NCBI RefSeq assembly: GCF_900095725.1 | Contig: NZ_FMMP01000015.1 | Location: 132,364-164,363, forward strand | Reading direction: 5' to 3' | Length of the DNA: 32,000 bases | Source: Cellulosilyticum sp. I15G10I2 | GTDB taxonomy: Bacteria; Bacillota; Clostridia; Lachnospirales; Cellulosilyticaceae | Shown: in pieces, positions 5,517 through 30,017 of the stretch | Numbering within the stretch: position 1 is the first letter of the stretch | Layout of the letters: each line of letters begins with the position of its first letter | The notes under the pieces: generated by a model | What the model was told of the DNA's origin: nothing | Databases searched by the model: none | What the model saw: the letters and a program-made list of their open reading frames with translations, nothing else | Translations under genes and position numbers: made by a program

Positions 5517-5572
5517 TAACATAATCTATGTAAAGTAATTAAAGACATGATGATATGGAGGGTGATGTTAGA

Positions 5573-12116: not shown

Positions 12117-12261
12117 CGATTGTATAAGGGCCATTTTCTATAAAGAAAAATAAGGCTCTTTTTTTATTTTTGGGAATTTATATTATAGAATTATAAGTTA
12201 ATTGGTGTTAAAATGAGGAAGTTAAAAGACTACGATATCTGTGTTTAGGAAGGGGATAAAC

Positions 12262-15967: not shown

Positions 15968-16115
15968 TACTTTTGATGAATTATAGTGAGAATCCTAAAC
16001 ATGTTTAGAAAAAACCTTTAAATATTTTGAAATATATTATAACACAAGAAGAATGCATGCGTCTTTGTATCTGTAAAACCTTGAGACCTCTAATAGTACA
16101 GACAAAGTAAATTAG

Positions 16116-16316
16116 CTATCTAAAAGGTCGGTTGTAATGCCCACTTGTTGATAGAGGATCAGTATTTGAAGTATTTATATCTGTATCTACATTTTTTAAA
16201 TGATTTGTAGATACAGATGCATTTAAATGCATCTTATTTGAAATTAATTCAACTGAATTATACTTACTTAAATTATTTACCTTAACATCTAATATGTATT
16301 TATAAATATTTTCCAT
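16116..16316 (-). CDS. orphan small hydrophilic protein (66 aa), function unknown
   Basis: Strong SD GAAGGAGAGG about 9 nt upstream of the ATG (complement of 16317-16338). An imperfect hairpin (16063-16075 with 16097-16107) lies just past the stop. No recognisable family, and the ORF contains the palindromes listed next. Confidence 0.35.
   Translation of the reverse strand: MENIYKYILDVKVNNLSKYNSVELISNKMHLNASVSTNHLKNVDTDINTSNTDPLSTSGHYNRPFR
16179..16234. repeat. two abutting palindromic elements inside the small ORF
   Basis: A 12-bp perfect inverted repeat, ATCTGTATCTAC (16179-16190) with GTAGATACAGAT (16207-16218), separated by 16 nt. It overlaps a 20-bp perfect palindrome, AGATGCATTTAAATGCATCT (16215-16234). 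Confidence 0.8.
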
Positions 16317-16748
16317 TTTGAGAAACCTCTCCTTCTATAAATAAAATTATTAGAACTTTATGTAAGTTATATATTATTTTTATAATTAAGTCGAAAAATA
16401 GGAGAATTTATGTATTGATAGAATTTATAGCAAAAAAAGGAATATTTACAATTATATTATAAATTTATACCTTATGTAATTGTCTGTTTACAGAACTATT
16501 TGAAAAAAAGCTACCAATAGTATTTAAGATATATCTTTTGTAAAAGACAATATAAAAAGACTATGCTGATATTAAGAAATGGTAACTGCATTGAGTAGGA
16601 GTCATTCTTTTTAATTCCCAATGATAACGATAGTAATTATAATAAATCATATATTAGTCAATCTCCAAATTTAATTCTTATAGGGCTTTTCAGGATTTTA
16701 TCTTTATTTCATCTTGCTTAGCCTATACTTTTAGTTAATTATACAAAG

Positions 16749-16799
16749 AAATACCCTATAGGATAGACTCTTTATGTCAGTCTACGCTGTAGGGTATTT
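16749..16799. terminator. bidirectional terminator at the left end of the tail element (downstream of the repressor gene)
   Basis: Outer stem AAATACCCTA (16749-16758) with TAGGGTATTT (16790-16799), plus an inner stem TAGACT/AGTCTA. A T-run follows on the plus strand and TTCTTTG on the minus strand. Confidence 0.6.
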
Positions 16800-16823
16800 T
16801 TTATTTAAAATTATTGTTAGCTT

Positions 16824-17204
16824 TCAATCTTTTATATTCTTAATTAATTTTTCCACATCAAATCCCACAGCAGATAAATTCTCTATTAATTTCTCCACTT
16901 CATTAGGTTTTAGATTATGGGGATAGCTCTTGTGAATTTCTATTTCTATAATATTACCATCTTTCATTCCCGAATATATTTTAGAATCTCTATGTTCTGT
17001 ACGTCCTAGTAAGTAGTCTGTTGTACAATTGAAAATATCAGCTAATTTATCTAATGTCACTGTTTCTGGAATTCTATTTCCATTTTCCCAATTTGAAACG
17101 GCAGTAACAGTAACTCCCATTTTATCTGCTAAGTCTTTTTGATTATAACCTTTCTCAAGTCTTAATTTTCTTATATTTTCATGTATTTTAAGCACAATAA
17201 GCAC
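16824..17204 (-). CDS. XRE-family HTH repressor (CI/Xre-like) with a short non-peptidase C-terminal domain
   Basis: HTH segment IRKLRLEKGYNQKDLADKMGVTVTAVSNWENGNRIP. The C-terminal ~55 aa has no S24/LexA Ser-Lys motifs. The track start is GTG 17204; GTG 17195, 6 nt after AGTAGGTG, is more likely. Confidence 0.8.
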   Translation of the reverse strand: MLIVLKIHENIRKLRLEKGYNQKDLADKMGVTVTAVSNWENGNRIPETVTLDKLADIFNCTTDYLLGRTEHRDSKIYSGMKDGNIIEIEIHKSYPHNLKPNEVEKLIENLSAVGFDVEKLIKNIKD

Positions 17205-17220
17205 CTACTTTCTTGTATAA

Positions 17221-17249
17221 ATTATACACTATACAAATAATCAATTCAA
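17221..17249 (-). promoter_or_regulatory. leftward sigma-A-type promoter for the repressor gene
   Basis: On the minus strand: TTGAAT (complement of 17244-17249), 17-nt spacer, TATAAT (complement of 17221-17226). Confidence 0.5.
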
Positions 17250-17262
17250 ATAAAAAGCATAA

Positions 17263-17376
17263 ATAAAGACACATTATAAAGTTATAAAGATAAATAATTA
17301 AAAACTTATTGAAATTTATCTTAAAGATAAGTAAAATATTATCATAAAGATAAATTATGATAATATCTAAAGATAG
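17263..17376. promoter_or_regulatory. array of putative operator repeats in the switch region
   Basis: Four copies of (A/T/C)TAAAGATA(A/G) start at 17284, 17321, 17344 and 17367 (spacing 37, 23, 23 bp). Degenerate ATAAAG copies lie at 17263 and 17276. The copies at 17316-17330 and 17339-17353 are 15-mers of the form TTATC-N5-GATAA. Confidence 0.5.
17309..17337 (+). promoter_or_regulatory. rightward sigma-A-type promoter for the cro-like and activator genes
   Basis: TTGAAA (17309-17314), 17-nt spacer, TAAAAT (17332-17337). Operator 17316-17330 fills the spacer and operator 17339-17353 covers the expected transcription start. Confidence 0.55.
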
Positions 17377-17464
17377 CTACTTCAAATTTCTAGAATAGTA
17401 TGTAAATCATAATGTATATATTATTATCAATTATACTACAAGATAAAAAGGAGAAATATCGTCA

Positions 17465-17674
17465 ATGAATATACTCTATTTACAACAGATAAGAGAGAAA
17501 AAAAAACTTTCTAAGGTGCAATTAAGTTATCAATCAGGCATTGCGAGAGGCTATATTACAGAACTTGAGAATGGAAAATATGATAATCCTAGTGTGAAGA
17601 TAGTATGTAATCTATGCAAGGCTCTAAAAGTCACACCAAACGATTTAATTAATGAGGATTTGTATAAAAGCTAG
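17465..17674 (+). CDS. small XRE-family HTH protein (Cro-like)
   Basis: 69-aa ORF after AAAGGAGA, with HTH LSKVQLSYQSGIARGYITELENGK. It is divergent from the repressor gene. Confidence 0.8.
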   Translation: MNILYLQQIREKKKLSKVQLSYQSGIARGYITELENGKYDNPSVKIVCNLCKALKVTPNDLINEDLYKS

Positions 17675-17750
17675 ATAGAGAATGATGAGAATATATTCTA
17701 TTCTTAAAAAGATTTTACTAAAGAATACAATGTGAAAGAGGGGACACATA

Positions 17751-18194
17751 ATGAAAAAATACAAAGAGATAGAAGATATGTTATATGGATACAATGATAT
17801 CAAAGCGGAGATTAGGGATATTGAACTGGATATAGAGTCATTTGAAAATGAATATACAGGGCTAAGTGCAGGCTGCCTTACAGCTATCAAAGCAAGTACA
17901 AGCACTTACAAGTTTAATAGCATAATAGAAAATGAAGTTATTAATAAGGAACAAAAGTTAAATTATCTTAAAAAACTAAGAAGAGGCAAAGAAATACAGC
18001 TAGAAAAAATAGATAATATGCTGACTATGTTGACAGAAGAACAGTCGGAACTGATAGAACTTAGATATTTTAAAAAATATAAAATAAATACGGTAGCTTA
18101 TAAATTGGATGTAAGTGAAGAAACAGTTAAAAAAAACAGGGTAATCATACTTAATAGACTAAATGATTTTTTATATAAGCGGAGTTATACCTAA
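17751..18194 (+). CDS. late-gene activator with a sigma-70 region-4-like C-terminus (Xpf/ArpU/RinA-type)
   Basis: 147 aa. The C-terminal LTEEQSELIELRYFKKYKINTVAYKLDVSEETVKKNRVIILNRL is a region-4-type HTH. It sits between the switch and the structural operon, like PBSX xpf (pcf). Confidence 0.6.
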   Translation: MKKYKEIEDMLYGYNDIKAEIRDIELDIESFENEYTGLSAGCLTAIKASTSTYKFNSIIENEVINKEQKLNYLKKLRRGKEIQLEKIDNMLTMLTEEQSELIELRYFKKYKINTVAYKLDVSEETVKKNRVIILNRLNDFLYKRSYT

Positions 18195-18395
18195 AAAATA
18201 CCCTATTTTTATATTTTTAGTGTACTGAAAAATACCATTTAGAAGTGATACTATGTTAATGTAGACAAAAACAAATATTAACAGCTAAAATTTTAGTTTT
18301 GTCTTTTATAACTATACATAAGACCTAAAAGAATGGAGTAGTAACAATTCAAATGTGATGCAACCACCTAAAAAGCGTATTGGAGGAAAAGTAAA

Positions 18396-18869
18396 ATGAA
18401 AAAATTATTAGTTGATTTAGGAATAGATCAAGAAATCATTAAAAAAATCATAACAGGTATGAAGCGAGCTAAAGTTTACACCACCTCATTAGAACGAGCT
18501 GATGAGCGATATACTAAACTAAAAAAGCAATATGAACTGTTAAAAAAACAACTAGAATTAGCTAATTCTGAAATAGATAGATGGCAGAAGCTTAATGACT
18601 ATAATGAAATTCTAAAGGCTGAAATAGATGCCTATAGAATGAAGATAGACACAATAAAAATAGACTATGATTCCCAGCTATGCAGTCTTATTTTTGACAA
18701 TGCCCTGAGCAAAAAGCTCGAAGATTTTGATGCTAAATATCATCAACTGCTAATAAACGCATTCAATAAAGATAAACTAGTGTTGGAGGAAGATGGATCT
18801 ATTAAAGGCTTGGATGAGCAATATGAAGCAATCAAAGCAAAGTATGCAGAATTTATTATTACAAGTTAA
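18396..18869 (+). CDS. coiled-coil protein resembling phage GP20-type scaffolding / minor structural proteins
   Basis: 157 aa after a GGAGG SD. It has an N-terminal LGIDQEIIKKI helix, a long coiled coil, and C-terminal DKLVLEEDGSIKGLDEQYEAIKAKY. This is the pattern I associate with PF06810 proteins, from memory and not from a search. Confidence 0.4.
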   Translation: MKKLLVDLGIDQEIIKKIITGMKRAKVYTTSLERADERYTKLKKQYELLKKQLELANSEIDRWQKLNDYNEILKAEIDAYRMKIDTIKIDYDSQLCSLIFDNALSKKLEDFDAKYHQLLINAFNKDKLVLEEDGSIKGLDEQYEAIKAKYAEFIITS

Positions 18870-18939
18870 GCTAATCAACTAAGATTCTAAGAGCTTTAAT
18901 AAAAATAAATATAGCAGGAGAATGGGGTGAATAACCAGT

Positions 18940-19365
18940 ATGATTAGTCAAATTAAGTCATGTATTAGGACAAAGTTACAGATACTGTATCCACAGACAC
19001 CAATATATGATATAGAAATTCCCTCAACTTCCCAAACACCGTCATTTCTAATACAACTAAAAAGTCAAACCTATAAAAAGTTGTTAAACACTAGATTTAG
19101 CAGCTTTTTATCATTTGACATTACTTATTCATCTGATATAGCACAGGATAAAGTGGCTATAGATTTGATTCAATTAACTCTTTTAAAAGAGTTTGATCTA
19201 TTGGAGCAAGATAATTTTAAGGTGAGAATCAAAAATAAGAAGTGTAGCCTGGAAGAAGGAAAAATACACTTTGCATTTGATATCAGCTATACAGAAATGA
19301 TAGAAGAGCCATTAAATCGTATGAGAGATATAGAACAATTTGAACTAAGGAGTGATGTAAAGTGA
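18940..19365 (+). CDS. putative tail terminator / collar protein
   Basis: 141 aa, immediately upstream of the sheath gene with a GTGA stop/start overlap. The N-terminal pattern LQILYPQTPIYDIEIPSTSQTPSFLIQL resembles Firmicutes 'phage tail terminator family' proteins. The call rests on position plus motif. Confidence 0.5.
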   Translation: MISQIKSCIRTKLQILYPQTPIYDIEIPSTSQTPSFLIQLKSQTYKKLLNTRFSSFLSFDITYSSDIAQDKVAIDLIQLTLLKEFDLLEQDNFKVRIKNKKCSLEEGKIHFAFDISYTEMIEEPLNRMRDIEQFELRSDVK

Positions 19366-20408
19366 GTGGAACATGGACTTCACAAAATAAAGTATTACCA
19401 GGGGTATATATTAATTTTTTGACTAATAAGCCACTTTCGATTATGCCAGGGGACCGTGGGACTGTAGCTTTGGCAGTGGAGTTAAGTGTAGGAGAAAAAG
19501 GTGATTTATATTATGAGACAGCTACATCGAGCGAACTTAAAGAAAAAGCACCGACAGCAGCAGACTATGAACTAGTGACTGAAGCACTTAAGTGTGCACA
19601 GTCTGTTATCGTCTATAATTTAGGTGTTTCACATACCATAGAGGACTTGGACGCTTGCCTAAATGTTTTTAAAACAGAAGATTTTAATGTATTTGCTTAT
19701 CCATTTGACGGAGACAACTTTGCAGCAAATAAAGCGACTGTTACTTCATGGGTAAAAGCTCTAAGAGCAGATGAAGGCAAATATGTACAGGCTGTTTTAG
19801 CTAATTATAAAGCAGATGATGAAGCTATCATAAATGTAGTTAATGGGGTTAAACTTTCGGACAATAAGATTTTATCAGCAGCACAGTGTACAGCTTGGGT
19901 AGCCGGAGCGACTGCTGGTGCTAGAATCAATCAGTCTAATACGAACAAAAAATATATAGGAGCTATAGATGCTGCACCTAAAATGACAAAAACTCAGATG
20001 GAAGCAGCAGTTAATGCTGGTGAATTTATCTTTAAATCTGACTTTAACCAAAATGTAACGGCAGTGTATGATATCAACTCGTTTACAACTTTTACAGCAG
20101 ATAAAGCAAAAGACTTTAGAAAAAACAGGGTAGTTAGAATTATTGATAATGTCAATAATGATGTAACAAGCATCTTCGAAGCCAGCTATATGGGTAAAGT
20201 AAATAACAATGATGAAGGCAGAAGTCTTTTAAGAGCAAGCCTTATTGATTATTTCAAGGAGCTTCAAAGACTACAGGCGATTCAGAACTTTACGCCGGAA
20301 GATGTAACAGTCTTGGCAGGGGCGGACACAGATGCCGTTATTATCAATAGTTATATTCAGCCGGTAGACAGTGCTGAGAAATTCTATATTACAGTGAACT
20401 TAAAATAA
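19362..20408 (+). CDS. contractile tail sheath protein (XkdK-like)
   Basis: N-terminus GTWTSQNKVLPGVYINF matches the XkdK-type sheath start. It is 348 aa and lies directly upstream of the tube gene. Confidence 0.85.
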   Translation: MSGTWTSQNKVLPGVYINFLTNKPLSIMPGDRGTVALAVELSVGEKGDLYYETATSSELKEKAPTAADYELVTEALKCAQSVIVYNLGVSHTIEDLDACLNVFKTEDFNVFAYPFDGDNFAANKATVTSWVKALRADEGKYVQAVLANYKADDEAIINVVNGVKLSDNKILSAAQCTAWVAGATAGARINQSNTNKKYIGAIDAAPKMTKTQMEAAVNAGEFIFKSDFNQNVTAVYDINSFTTFTADKAKDFRKNRVVRIIDNVNNDVTSIFEASYMGKVNNNDEGRSLLRASLIDYFKELQRLQAIQNFTPEDVTVLAGADTDAVIINSYIQPVDSAEKFYITVNLK

Positions 20409-20420
20409 GGAGGATAAATC

Positions 20421-20897
20421 ATGGCAGATAATTATGTAAAATTAGTGGACACAATATCTTCTAAAGAAGGCAAAGCATTTATTACAATTAATGGACAAAA
20501 CAGAGAACTTTTTGAGATATCTAACTGCAAAGCACAGTTGGATATGAAAGTACAAAGCAGACAGATGCTGGGGCACAGAATGGCTCAGCACAAGATTGTC
20601 GGAGCTGAAGGTACAGGAAGCATGACAATGTATTTTATGAACTCAGATATGCTGAAATTAGCTATAGAGTATATCAAAAATGGAACTTATGGCGGAATCA
20701 AGTTACAGATTAAGAATGAGGATGCACAAAGCAGTATCGGCAAGCAGGAAGTCATTCTAAATAACATCATACTTGCAACGATCCCGGTAACGGTGCTTGA
20801 TGATCAATCAGAAGATCCGATCACGATTGATACGGACTTTACATTTGATGATATCGAAGGGTTGTCATTTTTTGATTTGCCTGCAAATTTTAGATAG
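20421..20897 (+). CDS. tail tube protein (XkdM-like)
   Basis: 158 aa after AAGGAGG. SSKEGKAFITINGQNRELFEISNCKAQLD...GHRMAQHKIVGAEGTGSMTMY...FTFDD runs parallel to B. subtilis XkdM block by block. Confidence 0.85.
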   Translation: MADNYVKLVDTISSKEGKAFITINGQNRELFEISNCKAQLDMKVQSRQMLGHRMAQHKIVGAEGTGSMTMYFMNSDMLKLAIEYIKNGTYGGIKLQIKNEDAQSSIGKQEVILNNIILATIPVTVLDDQSEDPITIDTDFTFDDIEGLSFFDLPANFR

Positions 20898-20988
20898 AAG
20901 GCGAGGGCCTGGTGGCCCTCTTTTAAAGAATATCAATAAAAGAGGATTGAGTAAATTATAAGCAAAACAAAGGAAGGATAAAAAGTCA

Positions 20989-21387
20989 ATGAAAAGTTTA
21001 AAGGCATTTTTAAATCCAATTCAAGTAGAAAATCAAAAAATTATAGTATCTAAACGTTTTTTAGAAGACGGCAAACCCGTTGAGTGGGAAGTAAAAGCTA
21101 TTACGAGTGAAGAAAATGAATACCTTCTTAAAAAGCATATGAAAAAAGACAAAAAAGGAAATGAAACGTTTGATAAGTTAGCTTATATGAATGAAATGGT
21201 GGCAAGCTGTGTGGTTTATCCAGACCTGCTCAGTGCAGATTTACAGAAATATTATGGTGCAATGGGGGCGACTCAGCTTTTAAATAAAATGCTTCTAGTC
21301 GGTGAATTTGCAGTATTATCACAAGCTGTACAAGAAATTAGCGGATTACAGACAGAAAATGAGTTAATTGAAGAGGCAAAAAACTAA
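20989..21387 (+). CDS. tail assembly chaperone, short product (XkdN-like, gpG analogue)
   Basis: 132 aa with FLNPIQVENQKIIVSKRFLEDGKPVEWEVKAITSEENE, an XkdN-like pattern. It lies between the tube and tape-measure genes. Confidence 0.75.
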   Translation: MKSLKAFLNPIQVENQKIIVSKRFLEDGKPVEWEVKAITSEENEYLLKKHMKKDKKGNETFDKLAYMNEMVASCVVYPDLLSADLQKYYGAMGATQLLNKMLLVGEFAVLSQAVQEISGLQTENELIEEAKN

Positions 21388-21578
21388 TAAAGGAGAGTAA
21401 TGTCGAGTTTGTAATCGCTCATTATGCTCTCCAGAAGCTACATATAGTGCCTTCTCAAATAGTCAATATGACAGCAAGAGAAAGGGCATTTTTTTATGCC
21501 TCTATTTTGCATAGGATTGAGGCCGAAAAGAAAGAACAGGAAAAACTGAAACGTATAAAAAGTTCAAGGAGGAGGTGA
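20989..21578 (+). CDS. tail assembly chaperone, long -1 frameshift product (gpGT analogue); join(20989..21384,21384..21578)
   Basis: The -1 frame is open from the slippery site to TGA 21576-21578 (64 codons: LIKESNVEFVIAHYALQKLHIVPSQIVNMTARERAFFYASILHRIEAEKKEQEKLKRIKSSRRR). It has no SD-preceded in-frame start codon of its own and ends 5 nt before the tape-measure ATG. Confidence 0.55.
21378..21432 (+). promoter_or_regulatory. programmed -1 ribosomal frameshift signal (slippery heptamer plus downstream hairpin)
   Basis: A AAA AAC sits at 21378-21384, in X XXY YYZ register with the chaperone frame and one codon before its stop. After a 7-nt spacer comes a hairpin: GGAGAGTAATG (21392-21402) pairs with CATTA..CTCTCC (21420-21432) with a 2-nt bulge, plus an inner 3-bp extension. 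Confidence 0.6.
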
Positions 21579-21583
21579 TTTAA

Positions 21584-23584
21584 ATGTCAGTACAAAATAA
21601 TATGGCGGTTATTAATAATAAAGCTATTTTATTAGCTGAACAATACAATACAAGCATTAAAAATGTAATTAATGTTTCCAAGCTCTTTGAAAAAAACATA
21701 AACAACATAAATAATACAACCAATCATTTTAATATTCAGTTAGTTAATGCGTCAAATATTACAAATAATTTTAATAATGCCTTAAGTAAAACAGCCAGTA
21801 AAGTGAGTATCTTTGATAAGATGAAAGACAAACTAAAAGAACTCATATCTGTCCAGACCATAGTTAAAAAGGGATTTGAGTTGATGGGTAAAGGCTTAAA
21901 CACAGCCACAGAACTGCAAAAATCAGAACAGTTAATCGGCGCAGTATTAGGTGATACTAAGGTTGGATCAAGGTTATTTAATCATATATCTAAACAAGCA
22001 AAGGGATCTTCCTTAAGTATTGATGAGATGGCTGCCAATACCCAAAAGTTTTTGGGGGTGACACGAAGTGTTGAAGACATAGATCAGCTTAATAGTATGT
22101 CTGAGAAGCTTGCAAAATTAAATATAAGCGGACAGGATGCCAAGGGAGCAGGAGATGCCTTAAAAAAAGCTATGCAGGGAGATTATTCAGATTTAACTAA
22201 AAGCTTTAATATAGACGCAGGGGCGATAAAAGGCAGTGGGCTTGAGAATGCTGTTAGTATGGGGAATATGGCAGAGGCTGTAGACATTTTGGATGATCTT
22301 ATAAGTAAATCCGGCTACTCCCAAGAGGCATTAGATAATATGGTAGGAAATTTATCTATTCAGTGGGGGATGTTTACAAAAAAAATATCAGAAGATTTCG
22401 GTGGTGCTATGAGAATAGTTGCCGATACACTTGCTCCAATAGTTACAAAATTTAATGAGTTATTAAAAAGTGGAGCTTTTCAGCCATTTATAGATATATT
22501 GGTTGGCGGGTTTAATCTCATTGCAATAGGCTTATCATGGCTTGTAAATGGGTTTATATGGCTTGGAGAAGTGATTGGTTCAAATTGGGATATTATACAA
22601 GCAGTGCTTGGCGGCGTCGCTGCGGCTTTAATGGTTATAGGTGTTACATATATCCCCATGCTTATAGGCAAGTTATGGATGATGATACAACCTTTATTAG
22701 TGCAGGCTGCCACATGGATTATGATGAATCTGCCGATATTTATGTTTATTGCAGCAGTAGCCATTGTTATCTATATATTAGGGCAGATGGGTGTGACATT
22801 CGAACAGATTTTTGAAGTTGTAGGCGGGATATTAGGCGTATTTGTCGGATATTTTTACAATAGTTTTATATACCTGTGGAATATAGTAGCTGCATTTATC
22901 AATTTCTTTGGGAATGTCTTTAGTAATCCAGTAGCAGCCGTCCAGAAGCTATTCTATGATTTAGCTGTAAATGTTTTAAGCTTTATAGAAAAAATTGCAC
23001 AAGGCATTGAAGATTTACTTAATGGTATTCCTGGAGTTAAGGTGAGTCTCACATCGGGCATAACAAATCTTAAGAATAACCTGGCAGCTAAAGCAGGCAA
23101 AATAGCTGATGAAAATCAACTAAAGGAATTTGTAAAAAGTAAGGAGTTTGTTGATTACTCTGACGCATTTACCCAAGGAGCTAGTACAGCAGGAGACTTT
23201 TATAAAGGCATCAAAACAGGTTTGGGTAGTATCCTGCCGAATAGTTTAAGTATACAAGATGGTAATCTAACGCTACCTGGGTTAAATAATAAAGATAACC
23301 TGTCAGCTGGCAATCCATTTAATATGACGAACAACGAAAGTATACCGGTCAGTGGACCTAACGGCGGTAATGTACCTGTGGATGTGTCTGATGATGATGT
23401 ACAGTATCTTAAGGATATTGCGGAACGGGATTACATCAATAAATATTCATCGGCGACCCTAGCTCCTAATATTCAGGTGAGCTTTGGGGATGTTAAGGAA
23501 ACCGCTGATGTTGACAAGGTTGCTCAACGTATCCAATATATTTTACAGGAACAAATTGCAATAGCAGCAGAGGGGGCGTATTAA
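21584..23584 (+). CDS. tail tape measure protein
   Basis: 666 aa, the largest ORF of the module, after AAGGAGGAGGTG. It has an Asn-rich N-terminus, helical regions and a central block of 5-6 hydrophobic helices (22478-22933). It sits after the chaperone pair. Confidence 0.8.
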   Translation: MSVQNNMAVINNKAILLAEQYNTSIKNVINVSKLFEKNINNINNTTNHFNIQLVNASNITNNFNNALSKTASKVSIFDKMKDKLKELISVQTIVKKGFELMGKGLNTATELQKSEQLIGAVLGDTKVGSRLFNHISKQAKGSSLSIDEMAANTQKFLGVTRSVEDIDQLNSMSEKLAKLNISGQDAKGAGDALKKAMQGDYSDLTKSFNIDAGAIKGSGLENAVSMGNMAEAVDILDDLISKSGYSQEALDNMVGNLSIQWGMFTKKISEDFGGAMRIVADTLAPIVTKFNELLKSGAFQPFIDILVGGFNLIAIGLSWLVNGFIWLGEVIGSNWDIIQAVLGGVAAALMVIGVTYIPMLIGKLWMMIQPLLVQAATWIMMNLPIFMFIAAVAIVIYILGQMGVTFEQIFEVVGGILGVFVGYFYNSFIYLWNIVAAFINFFGNVFSNPVAAVQKLFYDLAVNVLSFIEKIAQGIEDLLNGIPGVKVSLTSGITNLKNNLAAKAGKIADENQLKEFVKSKEFVDYSDAFTQGASTAGDFYKGIKTGLGSILPNSLSIQDGNLTLPGLNNKDNLSAGNPFNMTNNESIPVSGPNGGNVPVDVSDDDVQYLKDIAERDYINKYSSATLAPNIQVSFGDVKETADVDKVAQRIQYILQEQIAIAAEGAY

Positions 23585-24258
23585 TGAGTTTTAATATATT
23601 TTTTAATTTTAATGAGGATGTTATGCGTCTACCGGTCAATCCACAGGAAATTAAGATAGATAATCCACAGGCTAATGAAAAGTATGAAGTTCTTAAATTG
23701 GGACAGATAGCTCTGCCAACGCACATGGCTAATAGAACCATTCAATTTGAAGCAGAATTTCCCAGTAAGACTTATCATTATGTAAATAATCAAAGAGGCT
23801 TTGATAAAGCGGGGAGCTTCAGAAATGCTAATGGATATCTTGAAATACTCCAAGAATGGCGGAGAAACAACAAGCCTATAGGTTTTAAAGTAAGTGATGG
23901 CATCAATGAAGAGATTAATACACAGATATTGATTGAAAGTATCACGATCACAGAAAAGGCTGGAGAAGAAGGGGATTACTATGTTGATTTCAAGCTTATA
24001 GAAACCGTCAATCTTATTAGGATGGAGGAGGTAAAGGAAGATCCTGTAACAGGGACAATAACCAAACAACAGGTAAAGGGAAATACAGAAAGCCCTAAAA
24101 AGCCGGAGAACTATACCATTGTAAAAGGTGATACATTATGGGGGATTGCAAAAAGGTTTTTAGGAGATGGAGCCAGATGGATCGAACTTCACAAGCTAAA
24201 TGCTACAATCAAAAATCCGAATCTTATTTATCCAGGGCAGGTGATTAAGCTCAGATGA
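23584..24258 (+). CDS. LysM-domain tail protein (XkdP-like)
   Basis: 224 aa with a TAATG overlap with the tape-measure stop. C-terminal LysM: YTIVKGDTLWGIAKRFLGDGARWIELHKLNATIKNPNLIYPGQVIKL. Confidence 0.8.
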   Translation: MSFNIFFNFNEDVMRLPVNPQEIKIDNPQANEKYEVLKLGQIALPTHMANRTIQFEAEFPSKTYHYVNNQRGFDKAGSFRNANGYLEILQEWRRNNKPIGFKVSDGINEEINTQILIESITITEKAGEEGDYYVDFKLIETVNLIRMEEVKEDPVTGTITKQQVKGNTESPKKPENYTIVKGDTLWGIAKRFLGDGARWIELHKLNATIKNPNLIYPGQVIKLR

Positions 24259-25196
24259 GTATACAGTTTTTAGTTACAAACAATATAGATCACAAATTAT
24301 ATGATATCACAAACTTAATTATAAAGATAACATGGACAGATGTACTTAATAATGGCTGCAGCAAGCTTGACTTTAGTCATATAGACGGTTATGCAGAAAT
24401 AGGCAATGGGTCGGTTATACAATTTCTATATGATAATCAAGTGTTATTTTATGGATTTGTATTTAAGACAAGAAGAAATTCCAAAAAAGAAATACAGGTT
24501 ACAGCCTATGATCAGCTTAGATATCTTAAAACCAAAGATTCAATTGTTATAAAAGATATGACATTGGGAGCTTTGATTAAAAATAGTTGTAAGTATTTCA
24601 ACCTTAAATGGGGGATTATAGCCGACACAAAATACAAGCTGATTCCCAGTATTCATACAGATAAAACCTGGCTGGATATTTTTTATAGCAGTATAAAAGA
24701 TACATTATTGGCTACAGGAGAAAAATACTGTGTACGAGATGAAGCAGGCCATATTGCTCTTCGCAATCTAAAAGAGTTGAATCTGTCTTTAGTAATAGGC
24801 GATAGTAGCTTATGTTACGATTATGATTATGAAAAGTCTATAGATGATGGAACCTATAATCTAATCGTATTGACTAAGAAGGATGAAAAAGAGCCTGTTA
24901 TCGCCAAAGATGAAGAATCCTTTAAGGCCTATGGTATTTTGCAGTATTTTGAATCAGTGGATCAAAATGTAAATAACGCCCAGCTTCAGGTAAGGGCCAA
25001 TGAGATGCTTAGATCATATAACCGTGAAAAAGAGACCTTACAGCTAAAATGTATTGGAGATACAAGGGTAAGGGCAGGTAATAGGATTTTTTCAAGTATG
25101 GAAGATCTAAGGATGAATAGGAGATTAGTAGTTGATAAGGTGACGCATACCTTTAAAGAAGGAAGTCATACAATGGATTTGGAGCTTATATTATGA
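24255..25196 (+). CDS. baseplate hub / late-control-D-like tail protein (XkdQ/YqbQ-like)
   Basis: 313 aa with an ATGA overlap. KLYDITNLIIKITWTD...FYGFVFKTRRNSKKEIQVTAYDQLRYLK matches the XkdQ pattern. Confidence 0.8.
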   Translation: MSIQFLVTNNIDHKLYDITNLIIKITWTDVLNNGCSKLDFSHIDGYAEIGNGSVIQFLYDNQVLFYGFVFKTRRNSKKEIQVTAYDQLRYLKTKDSIVIKDMTLGALIKNSCKYFNLKWGIIADTKYKLIPSIHTDKTWLDIFYSSIKDTLLATGEKYCVRDEAGHIALRNLKELNLSLVIGDSSLCYDYDYEKSIDDGTYNLIVLTKKDEKEPVIAKDEESFKAYGILQYFESVDQNVNNAQLQVRANEMLRSYNREKETLQLKCIGDTRVRAGNRIFSSMEDLRMNRRLVVDKVTHTFKEGSHTMDLELIL

Positions 25197-25453
25197 TTAA
25201 TGAGATTAAAAAAATAATAGTTAATTATTTAAACAGTGTAAAGATGACTCAACTGATGATTGGGAGTGTAGAAACGGTTAATCCGCTTTCAATTAAAATA
25301 GGGGATAAACTTATTATTCCTTATGAACTCATTACGGGTAACCAGAAGGCAAACCTGATACACTCTGAACAAATAGGGTCAAGGCTCAGACTTATATGTA
25401 ATTATGGAGGTCAAGAATATTTTATACTTGAGGTGATAAATGATGTTACCTAA
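25193..25453 (+). CDS. small baseplate/spike protein (XkdR-like, DUF2577-type)
   Basis: 86 aa with an ATGA overlap. GSVETVNPLSIKIGDKLIIPYELI is typical of this family. Position matches xkdR. Confidence 0.65.
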   Translation: MINEIKKIIVNYLNSVKMTQLMIGSVETVNPLSIKIGDKLIIPYELITGNQKANLIHSEQIGSRLRLICNYGGQEYFILEVINDVT

Positions 25454-25832
25454 TGAAGCTATAAACATACAAATAGACGAAACGCCTCAAACCAGCAATA
25501 CCTATAGACTGGGTATAGAAACAATACAAGGAATCATTGATGGCGTGGAGGCACTCAAGCAAGCTATCCAAAAGATATTAAATACAGAAAGATATCATTA
25601 TCCAATCTATTCCTTTGACTATGGACTAGATATGGAACAGCTGATAGGCCAGGACATAGAATATGTAAAAATAGCTGTTAAGGGACTCATCAAAGAAGCA
25701 CTTTTATATGATGACAGAATCAAAGATGTCACCAATTTTTATATTGAGAGTAACACCGATCAGCTGATATGTTCTTTTGATGTAATCAGTATTTATGGGA
25801 CAATTACAGCAGATAAGGAGGTGATGATGTGA
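25440..25832 (+). CDS. baseplate wedge protein, gp25/W-like (XkdS-like, DUF2634-type)
   Basis: 130 aa with TYRLGIETIQGIIDGVEALKQAIQKILNTERYHYPIYSFDYG, the XkdS pattern. It overlaps the upstream gene by 14 nt. Confidence 0.7.
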   Translation: MMLPNEAINIQIDETPQTSNTYRLGIETIQGIIDGVEALKQAIQKILNTERYHYPIYSFDYGLDMEQLIGQDIEYVKIAVKGLIKEALLYDDRIKDVTNFYIESNTDQLICSFDVISIYGTITADKEVMM

Positions 25833-26839
25833 ATTATAATGAAATTTTAGAACGTATGATGAGTAAAGTACCAAGTAATGTAGATAAGCGTGAAGGGAGT
25901 ATCATCTATGATGCATTGGCACCTTGTGCTTATGAACTTGCTCAAATGTATTTTAGGCTTGATAACTTTCTTAATCTAGTATTTGTAGACACATCTATAC
26001 AAGAATATTTAACACGTTTTTGCAGCGGATTTGGAGTGGAACGTAAAATGGCCACTAAGGCAATTAGAAAAGGAATATTTAATATAGATGTGCCTATTGG
26101 AAGCCGTTTTTCAATACAAAACATTATCTATAAGATAGTAGAGAAGATAGATGCAGGCGTATATAAACTAGAATGTGAGCAGCCAGGAGTAATAGGAAAT
26201 CAATATAGCGGAAGTATGCAGCCAATAGATAATGTTAGCGGTCTTACTAGTGCTAAACTTACAGATATCTTAATAGATGGAACCGATACAGAAACGGATG
26301 AAGCTCTGAGAAAGAGGTTTTACCTAAGAGTACAAATGCCTTCGACAAGCGGAAATGAATATCATTATAAACAATGGACACTTGAAGTAGAAGGAGTCGG
26401 AGACTGCAAAGTATTGCCCCTGTGGAATGGCAATGGAACGGTCAAGATACTTATCGTGGACAATGAGAAAAATCCTGCAACAAATGCTCTTAAGACGAGT
26501 GTGCGAGAGTATATTGAGAAATTTAGACCTATTGGAGCCACCATTACAATTGATACGCCAATAGCCAAAGAAATAAATGTTGGCAGCATATTAACAATTA
26601 ACAGCAGTGTAACATTAGAAGAAGTTACTACAGAGTTTAGACAAAGATTAGCTGACTATTTAAAAGGAATGACTTTTGAGAAAAACTTTGTAAGTTATGC
26701 AATCGTCGGCAGCTTGCTTTTGCAATGCAAGGGAGTTATAGACTATAATCATTTGACACTTAACGAAAATACTGAAAATATAATAGTAACAGACAGTGAA
26801 GTTCCTAGAATAGGAACTATTTCACTTAGTAAGGGGTGA
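25829..26839 (+). CDS. baseplate J-like protein (XkdT-like)
   Basis: 336 aa with a GTG start 5 nt after AAGGAGGTG and a GTGA overlap. The N-terminus ILERMMSKVPSNVDKREGSIIYDALAPCAYELAQMY is typical of the baseplate J family. Confidence 0.8.
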   Translation: MNYNEILERMMSKVPSNVDKREGSIIYDALAPCAYELAQMYFRLDNFLNLVFVDTSIQEYLTRFCSGFGVERKMATKAIRKGIFNIDVPIGSRFSIQNIIYKIVEKIDAGVYKLECEQPGVIGNQYSGSMQPIDNVSGLTSAKLTDILIDGTDTETDEALRKRFYLRVQMPSTSGNEYHYKQWTLEVEGVGDCKVLPLWNGNGTVKILIVDNEKNPATNALKTSVREYIEKFRPIGATITIDTPIAKEINVGSILTINSSVTLEEVTTEFRQRLADYLKGMTFEKNFVSYAIVGSLLLQCKGVIDYNHLTLNENTENIIVTDSEVPRIGTISLSKG

Positions 26840-27390
26840 GTTGTATGTTAATGGACTACTTACCCCTTTACTATGCTCAAAATAATACAATGCTGGAGCT
26901 GCAGACCATACTTGATCAAGAAGTTACTCTAACGGAAGCACAATTGATTGCTGCAGTTGATAACTGTTTTGTTAAAACTTCCACTGAGTTGTTAAGCAGG
27001 TGGGAAAAGATTTTAGGACTACCTATTGATATTACAAAAAGTAATAACTTCAGAAGAGAACGGATCAAGGCTAAAATATTAGGAGTTGGAACGACTACGA
27101 AACAAATGATAGAGGAAACAGCCAAAGCGTATTCTAATGGTGAAGTAGAAGTTATAGAGGATAGTGAAAACTACCGTTTTATCATTAAGTTTGTAGGAAC
27201 TGTTGGTATGCCGCCTAATATGAGTGACTTAACACAGACACTTAAGGAGATTAAGCCTGCTCATTTAAATTATACTTATGAATATATATTTAAAACCCAT
27301 GGTGGCTTAAAACCATATACTTATAGTTATTTAAAGCAATTTACTCATAGACAATTAAGGGAGAGTGATATAAATGGAAGTAACTCCTAA
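26836..27390 (+). CDS. baseplate/tail protein (XkdU/YmfQ-like, DUF2313-type)
   Basis: DYLPLYYAQNNTMLELQTIL...LLSRWEKILGLP matches the XkdU pattern. The real start is probably ATG 26845, 8 nt after AAGGGG. Confidence 0.7.
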   Translation: MSCMLMDYLPLYYAQNNTMLELQTILDQEVTLTEAQLIAAVDNCFVKTSTELLSRWEKILGLPIDITKSNNFRRERIKAKILGVGTTTKQMIEETAKAYSNGEVEVIEDSENYRFIIKFVGTVGMPPNMSDLTQTLKEIKPAHLNYTYEYIFKTHGGLKPYTYSYLKQFTHRQLRESDINGSNS

Positions 27391-28264
27391 TTTAGGCCTA
27401 AAGAAGCCTAATGACAATGAATATTATGATATACAAGATCAGAATAGCAATATGGACGTTATAGATGAACGAATAAGTGGCTTATCGGAAATTGCTACAA
27501 TATCGAAAAATGGACTTATGTCCAAAGATGACAAAGTAAAATTAAATGCACTAGATAATCAAATAGGTAATTTATCTGCACCTGCGACAGCAAGCAAGCT
27601 TGGGCCTATTAAGGTAGGAGCTAATCTATCGATAACCCCAGAGGGATTATTAAGCAGCTTGGCCGCGTATAGTCATCCAACTACCAAACAGTGTAGTTAT
27701 ACTGCTCCGGTTACCAGTGTAGCAGGTAGAACGGGAGCAGTAACACTAGCAAAAGCAGATATAGGCTTAGGTAGTGTAGAAAACTATGGAATAGCAACTT
27801 TGGCAGAGGCACAAGCAGGAGCCAGTGGGACCAAATATATGACTCCGGAAAGGGTAACGCAAGCAATACAGGCATTAGTTCCTAGTGGGCCTGCATGGAA
27901 TACAATAACTTGGGGAAGCTGTTCATTATCACAAAAACAAGAGGATACACTACCTTTTTCGCAAGTACAAGGTAATGCACATACGACTTATTCTGGCAAT
28001 GTAATAACATTTAAACAAGCTGGTACATATATGATTGCATTTGAGACTAGCTTAGCATGGTCAGGATCGATTGGGTATGGAGAGTTGGATGTTGGACCAT
28101 ATGCATTGTCTATTAAAACAGGCAATACCATTCAAGGGTTTGCATTTGGATTTTTTCCTCTATCTGGGGCAGTTAAGATCTGCAGGTATAATAATTTATC
28201 ATCAGGAACTGGAACCTGTAATTTTGGTGTAACACGTGTATATATAGTCAGGTTGTCCCCGTGA
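27374..28264 (+). CDS. tail fibre / receptor-binding protein
   Basis: 296 aa with common Firmicutes fibre motifs: N-terminal PNLGLKKP, GLMSKDDKVKLNAL, and VTSVAGRTGAVTLAKADIGLGSVENYGIATLAEAQAG...KYMTPERV. The C-terminal ~125 aa (27887-28264) is unrelated to these motifs. Confidence 0.75.
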   Translation: MEVTPNLGLKKPNDNEYYDIQDQNSNMDVIDERISGLSEIATISKNGLMSKDDKVKLNALDNQIGNLSAPATASKLGPIKVGANLSITPEGLLSSLAAYSHPTTKQCSYTAPVTSVAGRTGAVTLAKADIGLGSVENYGIATLAEAQAGASGTKYMTPERVTQAIQALVPSGPAWNTITWGSCSLSQKQEDTLPFSQVQGNAHTTYSGNVITFKQAGTYMIAFETSLAWSGSIGYGELDVGPYALSIKTGNTIQGFAFGFFPLSGAVKICRYNNLSSGTGTCNFGVTRVYIVRLSP

Positions 28265-28440
28265 TAATAAGTTATATATATGAATATAGATATTGTGTAA
28301 GTATATAAGATACATATAACAAAGGCGTACTTTATTATTTTAATATTATATGAATAGAAGCATAACATACGTAATAGTATTAGCAAAATTATATGTAGTT
28401 TTTAAACAGTGGATTTAAAAATGTTTTTATAGAAGACTAG

Positions 28441-28734
28441 GTGATATCTGTGGAACTAGATGACTTCATTATATTTATAGGATTGCTATTAACATGTCTA
28501 AACATAGTAGCCTTTTTTATTGGTCGAGCAAAGGATATTAGGGAGTGTACTAGAGATGAAAATAAAGTCTCTACAGACCTTGAAATTGTAAGACGAGGTA
28601 ACGGTAATATACTTATTAAGCTTGATAAAATAGACACTAAGATGGACAATATGCAGGAAAGATTAGTAAGAGTAGAAGAAAGTACAAAACAGGCACATAA
28701 ACGTCTTGATGAGCATCTTATTCAGGATAAATAA
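28441..28734 (+). CDS. small TM plus coiled-coil lysis-associated protein (XhlA-like)
   Basis: One N-terminal TM helix (FIIFIGLLLTCLNIVAFFIG), then a coiled coil (KLDKIDTKMDNMQERLVRVEESTKQAHKRLDEH). The likely start is GTG 28450, 6 nt after AGGTGA. Position is as PBSX xhlA, but the TM is at the opposite end. Confidence 0.45.
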   Translation: MISVELDDFIIFIGLLLTCLNIVAFFIGRAKDIRECTRDENKVSTDLEIVRRGNGNILIKLDKIDTKMDNMQERLVRVEESTKQAHKRLDEHLIQDK

Positions 28735-28812
28735 GCTAAGTAGCAAAGCTTTAGTGAGAAATTAAATAGAGCACAAACAATAAAATACGATAGTAAAGGA
28801 GAAAGAAAGCTT

Positions 28813-29127
28813 ATGATTGAATTTTTAGAAGCTGATATAGGCAATATTTTAGCACTATTTCTATTTGCAGTAGCTTGCATTCTGCTTATAAAAAATGGCT
28901 ATCGAGAAAAGGTCAGGAAAATACTTTTTTTCCTTGTGTGCAGAGCTGAAGATACATATGGAAGCAAGACAGGAACGCTAAAGTATGCGGCCGTAACGAC
29001 GTGGTTATATGAAAAGTTACCTAGTTTGATTAAACTGATCTTTTCTCAAAATGAAATAGATAGAATGCTCGAACAGGCTGTCGAAGAGATGAAAAAGTAT
29101 CTTTCAGAGATAAGAGCAGATAACTAG
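28813..29127 (+). CDS. putative holin (LL-H-family-like)
   Basis: 104 aa after AAGGAG. It has an N-terminal TM helix (ILALFLFAVACILLI), then GSKTGTLKYAAVTTWLYEKL...IDRMLEQAVEEMKK, which resembles LL-H holins. It lies directly upstream of the amidase. Confidence 0.5.
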   Translation: MIEFLEADIGNILALFLFAVACILLIKNGYREKVRKILFFLVCRAEDTYGSKTGTLKYAAVTTWLYEKLPSLIKLIFSQNEIDRMLEQAVEEMKKYLSEIRADN

Positions 29128-29135
29128 GCGGTGAA

Positions 29136-29954
29136 ATGATGAAAATAATGATTGATCCTGGGCATAGAAATAATATCCTTGATTATGGGGCCTGTGGCAA
29201 TGGACAAAAAGAGTCTTATCTAGCTTTGCAAATAAGCCAAAAACTTAAAAAAGAGTTAGAAAAGCATCATATAATATGCTACATGACCAGAGAAACTGAA
29301 AAACAGACAATAAGCATATTAGAAAGAACCACTAAGACATTGAATCTGAAATGTGATTTATTTGTAAGTATACATATTAATAGTGCAGCTAACAATAATG
29401 CTAGTGGGATAGAAGTACTTTATAAAGGAGAAAAAGAGCTTGCTGAAAGTGTGAGTCAGGCAATGAGCACTTCAACGGGAGCTACAAATCGTGGGGCTAA
29501 GCAGCGAACTGATTTAGGTATATTAAATGGATTTGAAAAAGCTATACTTATTGAATGCGGATTTATCAGTAATGCAAAAGAGTGTAAAAAACTAACAGAA
29601 ACTTCCTATCAAGAGAATCTTATCAAAGCAGTAGCAAATACTATTGTAAAAAAGTATAAAATAGTGATAGATAATATTGATTTAGAGTTAAAAGATGCAG
29701 TTAATAAACTCATTGTAAAAGACGTAAAAATTAATGCTGTATCTTGGAACACACTTGAAAAGATGAACTTAAGGTACACAGAGGCACTGGTGGAAAAAGT
29801 AGGAAGGGCAGTATTTAATACTGGAAATTATGCAGATACAATAGAAAAGCTAAATAATATAGAAGTTATTTCAAATAAAATCCTTTGGACTGAAAAAAGA
29901 TTTACTAAAGAAGCTGTTCGAAGTCTTATAATAAAAGTAGCTAATAAAGTATAA
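29136..29954 (+). CDS. N-acetylmuramoyl-L-alanine amidase endolysin (Amidase_3 catalytic domain plus two C-terminal repeats)
   Basis: IDPGHRN...GNGQKESYLAL...DLFVSIHINS...IECGFISN are Amidase_3 zinc and catalytic blocks. The C-terminus holds two ~40-aa repeats (AVNKLIVKDVKINAVSW...EALVEKVGRAV and TIEKLNNIEVISNKILW...EAVRSLIIKVANKV), a likely wall-binding module. Confidence 0.85.
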   Translation: MMKIMIDPGHRNNILDYGACGNGQKESYLALQISQKLKKELEKHHIICYMTRETEKQTISILERTTKTLNLKCDLFVSIHINSAANNNASGIEVLYKGEKELAESVSQAMSTSTGATNRGAKQRTDLGILNGFEKAILIECGFISNAKECKKLTETSYQENLIKAVANTIVKKYKIVIDNIDLELKDAVNKLIVKDVKINAVSWNTLEKMNLRYTEALVEKVGRAVFNTGNYADTIEKLNNIEVISNKILWTEKRFTKEAVRSLIIKVANKV

Positions 29955-30017
29955 TACAAAAGAAGCTGTCCTAAAAGGTAAATAAAGTTTACTTTTTATA
30001 GGGCAGCTTCTTTTGTA
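29955..30017 (+). terminator. long hairpin terminating the late/lysis operon
   Basis: A 19-bp stem, TACAAAAGAAGCTGTCCTA (29955-29973) with TAGGGCAGCTTCTTTTGTA (29999-30017), with one G-U pair. There is no clean U-tract after it. Confidence 0.6.

Follow-up and report, generated by a model that had tools for sequence, protein, structure and literature searches.

A compact headless contractile tail cluster in Cellulosilyticum that probably encodes an R-type tailocin

Between 16.8 and 30.0 kb of a 32-kb stretch of DNA from Cellulosilyticum sp. I15G10I2 (Clostridia, Lachnospirales, Cellulosilyticaceae), hereafter the window, lies a ~13-kb cluster of phage-tail genes. An earlier reading of the bare sequence (the original prediction) had proposed it as a candidate R-type tailocin. 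We assigned its genes by Pfam and PHROG profile searches of open reading frames (ORFs) on both strands from 15.9 to 30.4 kb. For comparison we assembled ~90 related loci (numbered L002, L007 and so on), found through identical or near-identical proteins and sheath-alignment scans; a scan of genome contigs returned only one distant metagenome-assembled genome. A C. difficile locus (L105) represents diffocin, an experimentally proven headless R-type bacteriocin of a clostridial species (PMC6088184, PMC10996793, PMC13324602); it was fetched from IMG/VR with a CD1363 sheath fragment rebuilt from a PDB alignment. The cluster comprises the following features:

16824–17204, minus strand: CI-like helix-turn-helix (HTH) repressor, 126 aa (PF01381 HTH_3, E 9e-18; repressor families phrog_8, phrog_4 and phrog_3)
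17205–17464, no strand: divergent control region with palindromes TTATCTTAAAGATAA (17316–17330) and TTATCATAAAGATAA (17339–17353) and half-sites
17465–17674, plus strand: Cro-like HTH protein, 69 aa (PF01381, E 2e-11)
17751–18194, plus strand: late activator of RinA / sigma-70 region-4 type, 147 aa (PF08281, PF04545, PF07638; phrog_36, E 1e-23)
18301–18337, plus strand: conserved non-coding block GTCTTTTATAACTATACATAAGACCTAAAAGAATGGA, candidate late promoter or activator site
18396–18869, plus strand: truncated capsid scaffolding homologue, 157 aa (PF06810, E 1.3e-22; phrog_194 'head scaffolding', E 6e-21)
18940–19365, plus strand: tail terminator / collar (PF20765, E 4e-18), positional counterpart of diffocin collar CD1362
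19362–20408, plus strand: contractile sheath, short form, 348 aa (PF04984, PF17482; PDB 3hxl, E 4.5e-80)
20421–20897, plus strand: tail tube (PF09393, E 2e-38)
20989–21387, with a -1 frameshift extension to 21578, plus strand: XkdN-type tail assembly chaperone (PF08890, E 3e-35)
21584–23584, plus strand: tape measure protein, 666 aa (phrog_1068, E 6e-72)
23584–24258, plus strand: XkdP-like baseplate protein with C-terminal LysM domain (PF01476, E 7e-13; phrog_380, E 1e-52)
24255–25196, plus strand: XkdQ/YqbQ baseplate hub protein (PF24032, E 6e-97)
25193–25453, plus strand: XkdR-like small baseplate protein, DUF2577 (PF10844, E 2e-6; phrog_579)
25440–25832, plus strand: gp25-like sheath initiator, XkdS (PF10934, E 8e-29)
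25829–26839, plus strand: Baseplate J-like wedge protein, XkdT (PF04865, E 3e-62)
26836–27390, plus strand: Mu gp48-like baseplate protein, XkdU (PF10076, E 2e-28)
27374–28264, plus strand: tail fibre / receptor-binding protein, 296 aa (PHROG fibre motifs)
28441–28734, plus strand: small membrane and coiled-coil protein of the lysis cassette (phrog_1863, function unknown, E 3e-15)
28813–29127, plus strand: putative holin (PF09682, E 4e-4; phrog_15303, E 7e-20; phrog_6918 holin, E 1.6e-4)
29136–29954, plus strand: N-acetylmuramoyl-L-alanine amidase endolysin (PF01520, Amidase_3, E 2e-39; phrog_435, E 2.5e-47)

Tail, lysis and control genes

The full Xkd-order tail module named in the original prediction is present: every component is supported by profiles, and twelve intact tail genes in PBSX order are followed by the fibre. 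None of the 17 structural and lysis ORFs is broken, and each has the length that it has in complete phages. Genes run without interruption on a single strand from 18396 to 29954. From terminator to fibre most junctions overlap or leave a few bases, and the longer gaps of the run follow the scaffolding homologue (72 nt) and the tube gene (91 nt) or lie within the lysis cassette (176 and 78 nt). As predicted, no ORF on either strand of the searched interval matches a terminase, portal, protease, capsid, adaptor, integrase or replication family. PDB sequence searches with the terminator, the fibre and the scaffolding homologue gave no match.

One exception concerns the interval from activator to sheath, which had been described as ~1.1 kb with two small ORFs. 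It measures 1.17 kb and does contain two ORFs, but the product of 18396–18869 is a scaffolding homologue, and one head-module gene thus survives. A capsid, portal or terminase function at 18396–19365 or in another ORF had been named in advance as grounds for giving up the tailocin proposal. What profiles identify there is a capsid-assembly homologue, but it is truncated, lacks the C-terminal motif of phage scaffolds and has no capsid gene in cis; this relic therefore documents phage ancestry and not a head module.

Read directly from the sequence, the chaperone gene carries the slippery heptamer A AAA AAC at 21378–21384, in the correct phase and one codon before the stop. Past this site the -1 frame stays open for 64 further codons, to 21578, and this extension shares 80% identity with a 55-aa ORF of L002. 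The slippery site is invariant among headless loci, one complete phage and the diffocin locus (L105, ~7040–7060); the motif is GCAAAAAACTAA, with the variant GTAAAAAACTAA in diffocin and L053. Chaperone and predicted frameshift product constitute the classical two-product tail assembly chaperone arrangement, which argues that the assembly pathway is intact. The tube is 93–95% identical in relatives. At the distal end of the particle, the C-terminal 125 residues of the fibre (~170–296) are predicted to form a TNF/C1q-like jelly-roll knob (predicted local distance difference test score 84–93). In structure comparisons the modelled fold matches BclA, ExsFA and the receptor-binding domain of the short fibre of cyanophage A-1(L) (E 1e-6). 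Only two full-length homologues of the fibre, 63–64% identical, were present in the protein collection.

The predicted XhlA-like/holin/amidase cassette was borne out in part. The amidase matches strongly, with a ~100-aa C-terminal domain that has no family assignment, and the holin matches weakly; the XhlA-like label found no profile support, as the product of 28441–28734, which has a hydrophobic segment at its N-terminus, does not match Pfam XhlA.

Upstream of the tail genes, profiles confirm the proposed CI/Cro-like switch and sigma-like activator as an HTH pair and a sigma-70 region-4/RinA-like protein. The repressor is 36–38% identical to those of the headless relatives L007 and L053. In relatives (L002, 6199–7093; L007, 4889–6105) the repressor is paired with an ImmA-type protein (Peptidase_M78), whereas the window has a Cro-like gene instead (compare 16116–17204) and contains no ImmA remnant. 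By its gene content the regulatory module is swapped in the window, and the inducing signal may differ from that of the relatives. A repeat search located the two operator-like 15-bp palindromes, 23 bp apart, and the half-sites in the repressor/Cro intergenic region; the WTAAAGATARNT motif occurs three times in the control region against 0.65 copies expected in the whole window.

The activator scores 31.3 bits against TIGR01636 (RinA), whose cut-off is 31.9, and is 84–86% identical in L007–L011, with a ratio of nonsynonymous to synonymous substitution rates (dN/dS) of 0.056 between the window and L007. It is 37% identical to a 146-aa protein at the same position in the diffocin locus. Located ~60 bp before the scaffold relic, the 37-nt block at 18301–18337 does not vary among the window, L007–L011, L018 and L019; L002 departs from it at three positions, against a background of saturated synonymous divergence from the window. 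Neither the other headless groups nor the phages yielded a match to it. The block is the best candidate for a late promoter or activator site before the structural operon. The preceding segment, 18200–18312, contains a hairpin-like AGACAAAAAC...GTTTTGTCT with a T-run, and GAAAAATACC direct repeats. Scans of the window for sigma-70 promoters and terminators gave matches no commoner than in shuffled sequence.

Headless relatives and the scaffold relic

Headless loci with the layout of the window, from repressor, activator and relic through terminator, sheath, tube and chaperone onward, recur in L002 (a 179-kb metagenome contig) and in L007–L011, L018 and L019, which are contigs from several samples. 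They adjoin host genes different from those of the window and carry an ImmA protease beside the repressor. Comparison with L007 gave dN/dS values of 0.018 for the tube, 0.044 for the sheath, 0.043 for the chaperone and 0.35 for the terminator, with synonymous sites near saturation for most genes. Six genes measured against L007 fall between 0.02 and 0.35, and the headless layout is kept in several lineages; both are marks of maintenance by selection.

We sorted the loci with enough upstream sequence into phage and headless classes and checked L031 (complete) and L053 (headless) with Pfam. Complete phages begin with TerS, TerL, an SPP1-type portal, a Mu F-like gene, one or two small ORFs, a PF06810 scaffold, a Gp13-like capsid and four connector genes, and continue with the same terminator, a 346–349-aa sheath and an Xkd-order tail. 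In headless loci a host gene is followed by opposite-strand ImmA and repressor genes, then by a sigma-like activator, up to two small ORFs and a scaffold homologue, with the terminator immediately after. Set against the complete relatives, the window lacks the terminase-to-MuF and capsid-to-connectors blocks of the parent genome and retains the gene between them. Related loci assign the element to a family of phages that combine an SPP1-type head with a PBSX-type tail; its members comprise complete phages and three or more separate headless lineages. We discarded the short sheath (348 aa) as a tailocin signature, since the sheaths of complete phages of the family are also 346–349 aa long.

A neighbour-joining tree of sheath and tube (100 bootstrap replicates) places the window in a headless clade that is monophyletic in 100 of 100 replicates. 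A second headless group (L013, L034, L048, L049, L053 and L055) is phage-free in 91 of 100. The common ancestor of any two headless groups includes complete phages in all 100, and in a third headless locus, L041, the relic has the N-terminal type of nearby complete phages, unlike that of the other two groups. On these two grounds we rejected a single origin of all headless loci, with the reservation that recombination of tail modules could mimic the pattern. Either head loss took place two to three times at the least, or tail modules were exchanged; distance trees cannot separate these two histories. Module exchange between lineages does occur in the distal tail, as the mosaic L002 (13117–20105) documents: its sheath, tube and chaperone are 82–93% identical to those of the window, its baseplate genes 38–45%, and its fibre has 980 aa.

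A separate observation comes from L069 (8704–11311; IMG/VR 2508501001_000004), where a 441-aa sheath has a PF06810-type scaffold ~0.6 kb upstream. The same sequence holds the complete phage L071, and L069 may be a further headless derivative from a different branch, residing in the same genome as a complete relative.

The relic itself deserves closer description. PF06810 scaffold homologues of phages measure 194–262 aa and lie just upstream of the major capsid gene; those of phiCp-D and phiCD24-1, directly upstream of it, have 200–211 aa. A word-index homologue search with the relic gave only five matches. Alignment indicates that the relic of the window has kept the N-terminal coiled coil and lost the KNPWSKEHFNLTEQ... 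tail, and its model consists of one 110-residue helix, a hairpin and a short helix. The phage copies terminate in a conserved motif, KNPWSKEHFNLTEQGKLLKENPELA; comparison with the scaffolding proteins of other phages suggests that this C-terminal end binds the capsid. Among headless loci, the window, L007 and L002 have lost it, L034, L048 and L053 retain a degenerate version, and L049 and L050 carry other sequence in its place. The L062 relic has an internal deletion, and only the first 62–76 residues are left in L013, L015 and L055. A TAT-to-TAG nonsense mutation at codon 115 is found in three independent samples (L009, 3347–3691; L010, 940–1413; L011, 2027–2371) whose genes neighbouring the relic are 97–100% identical to L007; one sublineage seems to have dropped the last 43 residues recently.

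In the two main headless groups the first 160 codons of the relic are clearly constrained by purifying selection (dN/dS 0.16, 0.12 and 0.21; binomial p 1e-8 to 1e-12). For the window against L007 the value is 0.16 (p 1.5e-11), and as these two share the truncation point, their whole divergence post-dates the truncation. C-terminal codons are neutral-like in the best-measurable pair, L049/L050 (dN/dS 1.3), and mostly not significant in other pairs. The open frame by itself is weak proof of a functional relic, as 7% of neutral simulations also stay open; the codon-based test carries the weight. Almost every headless locus has the relic immediately ahead of the tail terminator. In our reading the coiled coil is probably selected in most headless lineages and dispensable in some.

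A tentative extension, which we hold to be possible but rather unlikely, is that the relic is a co-opted part of the tailocin family: the head would have been lost at least two to three times, with the N-terminal coiled coil nearly always kept before the terminator and the C-terminal motif lost. If so, it might act in tail assembly or operon expression, or serve as a decoy and spoil the assembly of capsids when related phages superinfect the cell, and the family would be a rare intermediate series for the domestication of phages into tailocins.

Chromosomal site and proposed function

Both flanks are housekeeping DNA, as originally described. Profile searches identify yabG, sipL, ispE, a GntR regulator, two phosphoglucomutase paralogues, manA and a CPBP protease on the left, and a hybrid receiver (REC)-histidine kinase on the right. 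The window contains no tRNA and no Rfam family, and neither an integrase within it nor flanking direct repeats of at least 10 nt or att-like sites were found. The closest available relatives by manA (L098, L100 and L102; 71–76% identity) keep the left-flank order yabG-sipL-ispE-gntR-pgm-manA and have no tail cluster downstream of manA. In L102 (11162–20948) the orthologues of the CPBP protease (55%) and the receiver kinase (86% over the part present) lie 8.6 kb apart and enclose seven cellular genes, none of the seven present in the window; among them are an ABC transporter, a Band_7 and a TPM-phosphatase gene. This synteny comparison, which the original prediction had proposed, thus shows relatives with no tail cluster at the site and, in L102, unrelated cellular genes in its place. 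Judged by these relatives, the interval from CPBP to receiver kinase is a variable region, and since they carry other genes there, the cluster is specific to the lineage of the window at the manA/CPBP site.

Some features of the surroundings stand apart from these results. The left end of the element (window 16001–18000) is markedly AT-rich, with a GC content of 0.25–0.27 against 0.31–0.38 elsewhere in the window, and a 66-aa ORF at 16116–16316 on the minus strand matches nothing. The phosphoglucomutase/phosphomannomutase paralogues (5555–7303 and 12241–13983), ~51% identical as judged via relatives, flank the yabG-sipL-ispE-gntR block, an arrangement kept in L098 and L102.

We interpret the locus, with a probability of about 0.7, as the tail part of a temperate myovirus, domesticated to function as an R-type tailocin. 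It has a complete tail set, no head or DNA genes save the truncated scaffold, and its own switch and lysis genes. What makes this the best-supported reading is the gene content together with intact frames, signs of selection, the conservation of cis elements, a headless layout that recurs and the parallel with diffocin. The original tailocin proposal gains from the follow-up in that the intact tail genes are under purifying selection and the layout, with its tail-only architecture, recurs at other chromosomal sites in different organisms.

In the sequence of events we propose, a stress signal would lift repression and the activator would switch on the structural operon from the conserved 37-nt block. 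The baseplate (XkdP/Q/R/S/T/U) would assemble around the tape measure, held by the chaperone and its -1 frameshift product, after which tube and sheath would polymerise and the terminator would cap both. Holin and amidase would lyse the producer and free the particles. A trimeric TNF-like fibre knob would bind a surface receptor on related bacteria, whereupon contraction of the sheath would drive the tube through the envelope and the target would die by loss of membrane potential. The 157-aa scaffolding homologue would be a relic of the head module of the parent phage, its coiled coil still selected.

Several points weigh against this interpretation. The repressor has neither an S24 peptidase or other recognisable cleavage domain nor, unlike that of the relatives, an ImmA partner. 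The holin call is weak, its PF09682 score of 21.1 bits falling below the 24.9-bit cut-off. One head-module homologue persists under selection, something that a simple tailocin model would not lead one to expect. Particles, induction and killing are what we infer from genes, and a head module could lie elsewhere in the genome, as 32 kb of a 268-kb draft-genome contig were in view.

Some of these points would suit an inert remnant, the deletion leftover of a defective prophage that makes no active particles: integrase and att repeats are missing, a truncated head gene remains, the relic is nonsense-mutated or fragmentary in some relatives, and the regulatory module, devoid of ImmA, is unlike theirs. 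Decay of this kind is hard to reconcile with 17 of 17 structural and lysis ORFs intact at phage length, with dN/dS of 0.02–0.06 for sheath, tube, chaperone and activator at saturating dS, with conservation of the frameshift site and the upstream non-coding block, or with a headless layout that persists across lineages whose sheaths are only ~60% identical, and we regard it as improbable. Slightly less probable still is a supplier of tails in trans, which would join the heads of a split prophage or a capsid-forming satellite into DNA-carrying particles. The selected scaffolding homologue, the confinement of the view to 32 kb, and the fact that PBSX-type and clostridial 'R-type' elements usually keep heads (PMC10538166) would agree with such a role. 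However, the window has none of the adaptor genes that connect head and tail and stand before the terminator in complete relatives, and its relic is without the conserved C-terminal motif of phage scaffolds; in headless relatives within long host contigs, the flanks that were fetched, reaching up to 9 kb upstream in L002 and ~9.6 kb in L013, contain no head genes.

A contractile sheath, tube and baseplate without a head are also found in extracellular contractile injection systems of the Afp/PVC kind, which deliver a protein payload to eukaryotic or bacterial cells. No ORF of the cluster encodes an AAA+ ATPase, an Afp-type sheath paralogue, a toxin or a payload; the cluster does contain a lysis cassette of phage type together with a repressor switch and a frameshifted XkdN chaperone, and its nearest relatives are temperate phages, all of which makes this origin highly implausible. 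We dismissed a PBSX-like defective prophage, as the head module (terminase, portal, protease and capsid) is absent from the window, and a gene transfer agent, as capsid and packaging genes are absent from it.

Taken as a tailocin, the cluster would join a short list: truly headless systems are few among the described Gram-positive ones that we found, namely diffocin, monocin and efagin. A compact 13-kb contractile tailocin from a different clostridial order would widen the set that can be engineered as narrow-spectrum killers. Tracing the origin of tailocins from prophages is hampered by the paucity of intermediates (efagin paper, PMC12713668). The evolutionary value of the present family would lie in its complete, headless and partly eroded forms, in which a head-assembly gene outlived the head and independently headless cousins display the scaffold relic at different stages of erosion.

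Comparison with known systems

The original prediction had suggested an undescribed element in a different Clostridia lineage, and full-text literature searches found no published Cellulosilyticum tailocin. Searches on tailocins in Lachnospiraceae, in Clostridia or in connection with scaffolding proteins, and on Cellulosilyticum prophages, returned nothing on this lineage or on a retained scaffold gene.

With PBSX, PBSZ and PBP180 of Bacillus the cluster shares the Xkd order from sheath (XkdK) to XkdU, a sigma-like positive control factor and amidase-based lysis. Bacteriocin-like killing by tails, predicted for the window element, would be a further likeness. PBSX keeps terminase, portal, protease and capsid genes and packages DNA; the window has none of this block except the scaffold relic, and the absence of terminase, portal, protease and capsid had been predicted. 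The ancestral head of the element was SPP1/Gp13-like with a PF06810 scaffold, not a PBSX head. R-type pyocins of P. aeruginosa, whose tail is P2-like, resemble the element in concept, as headless contractile tails with their own regulators and lysis cassette between housekeeping genes, a likeness drawn without sequence comparison; they differ in their unrelated origin, other regulators and Gram-negative envelope target.

Among clostridia, R-type structural cassettes occur throughout the solvent-producing species and in C. phytofermentans (Lachnospirales), and ~40-kb Gram-positive R-type elements keep a full capsid module, an integrase or resolvase and 20–27 regulatory and replication genes (PMC10538166, a 2023 review). 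The R-type prophages of C. beijerinckii and clostocin O are, like the window element, clostridial myovirus-type cassettes, and theirs yield contractile tail particles on induction. At ~13 kb the present element lacks the capsid module, integrase or resolvase and 20–27-gene set of these ~40-kb prophages. A PBSX-like tail-like bacteriocin of Brevibacillus has terminase genes nearby (PMC9406221).

The layout of diffocin (CD1359–CD1379) corresponds gene for gene, in line with the original prediction. Both elements are headless and chromosomal and follow the same order, including the LysM/hub baseplate, the J-like wedge, the receptor-binding protein and the lysis genes. In L105 three minus-strand genes, among them a repressor homologue, are followed by the 146-aa activator-like gene, a 249-nt gap, a collar of 147 aa, a sheath of 354 aa (348 aa in the window), tube, chaperone, a 55-aa ORF, tape measure and baseplate, and the chaperone has the same AAAAAAC slippery site. 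However, diffocin proteins are only 21–39% identical to those of the window (tblastn against L105), and the window sheath is much closer to the prophage sheaths DSY3957 (E 4.5e-80) and Lin1278 than to CD1363 (E 4.8e-25). The fibre of the window, a single 296-aa protein with a TNF-like knob, also differs from diffocin, as does the taxonomic order of the host. Because the layout is shared at only 21–39% identity, we consider the window element an independent lineage and not a diffocin orthologue. Between activator and collar, where the window has its scaffold relic, diffocin has none (the 249-nt gap; hidden Markov model E>1). Complete C. difficile myophages near the diffocin sheath carry a PF06810-type scaffold ~3 kb upstream of their sheath gene. 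In diffocin, then, the same kind of reduction seems to have run its full course within a sister phage group.

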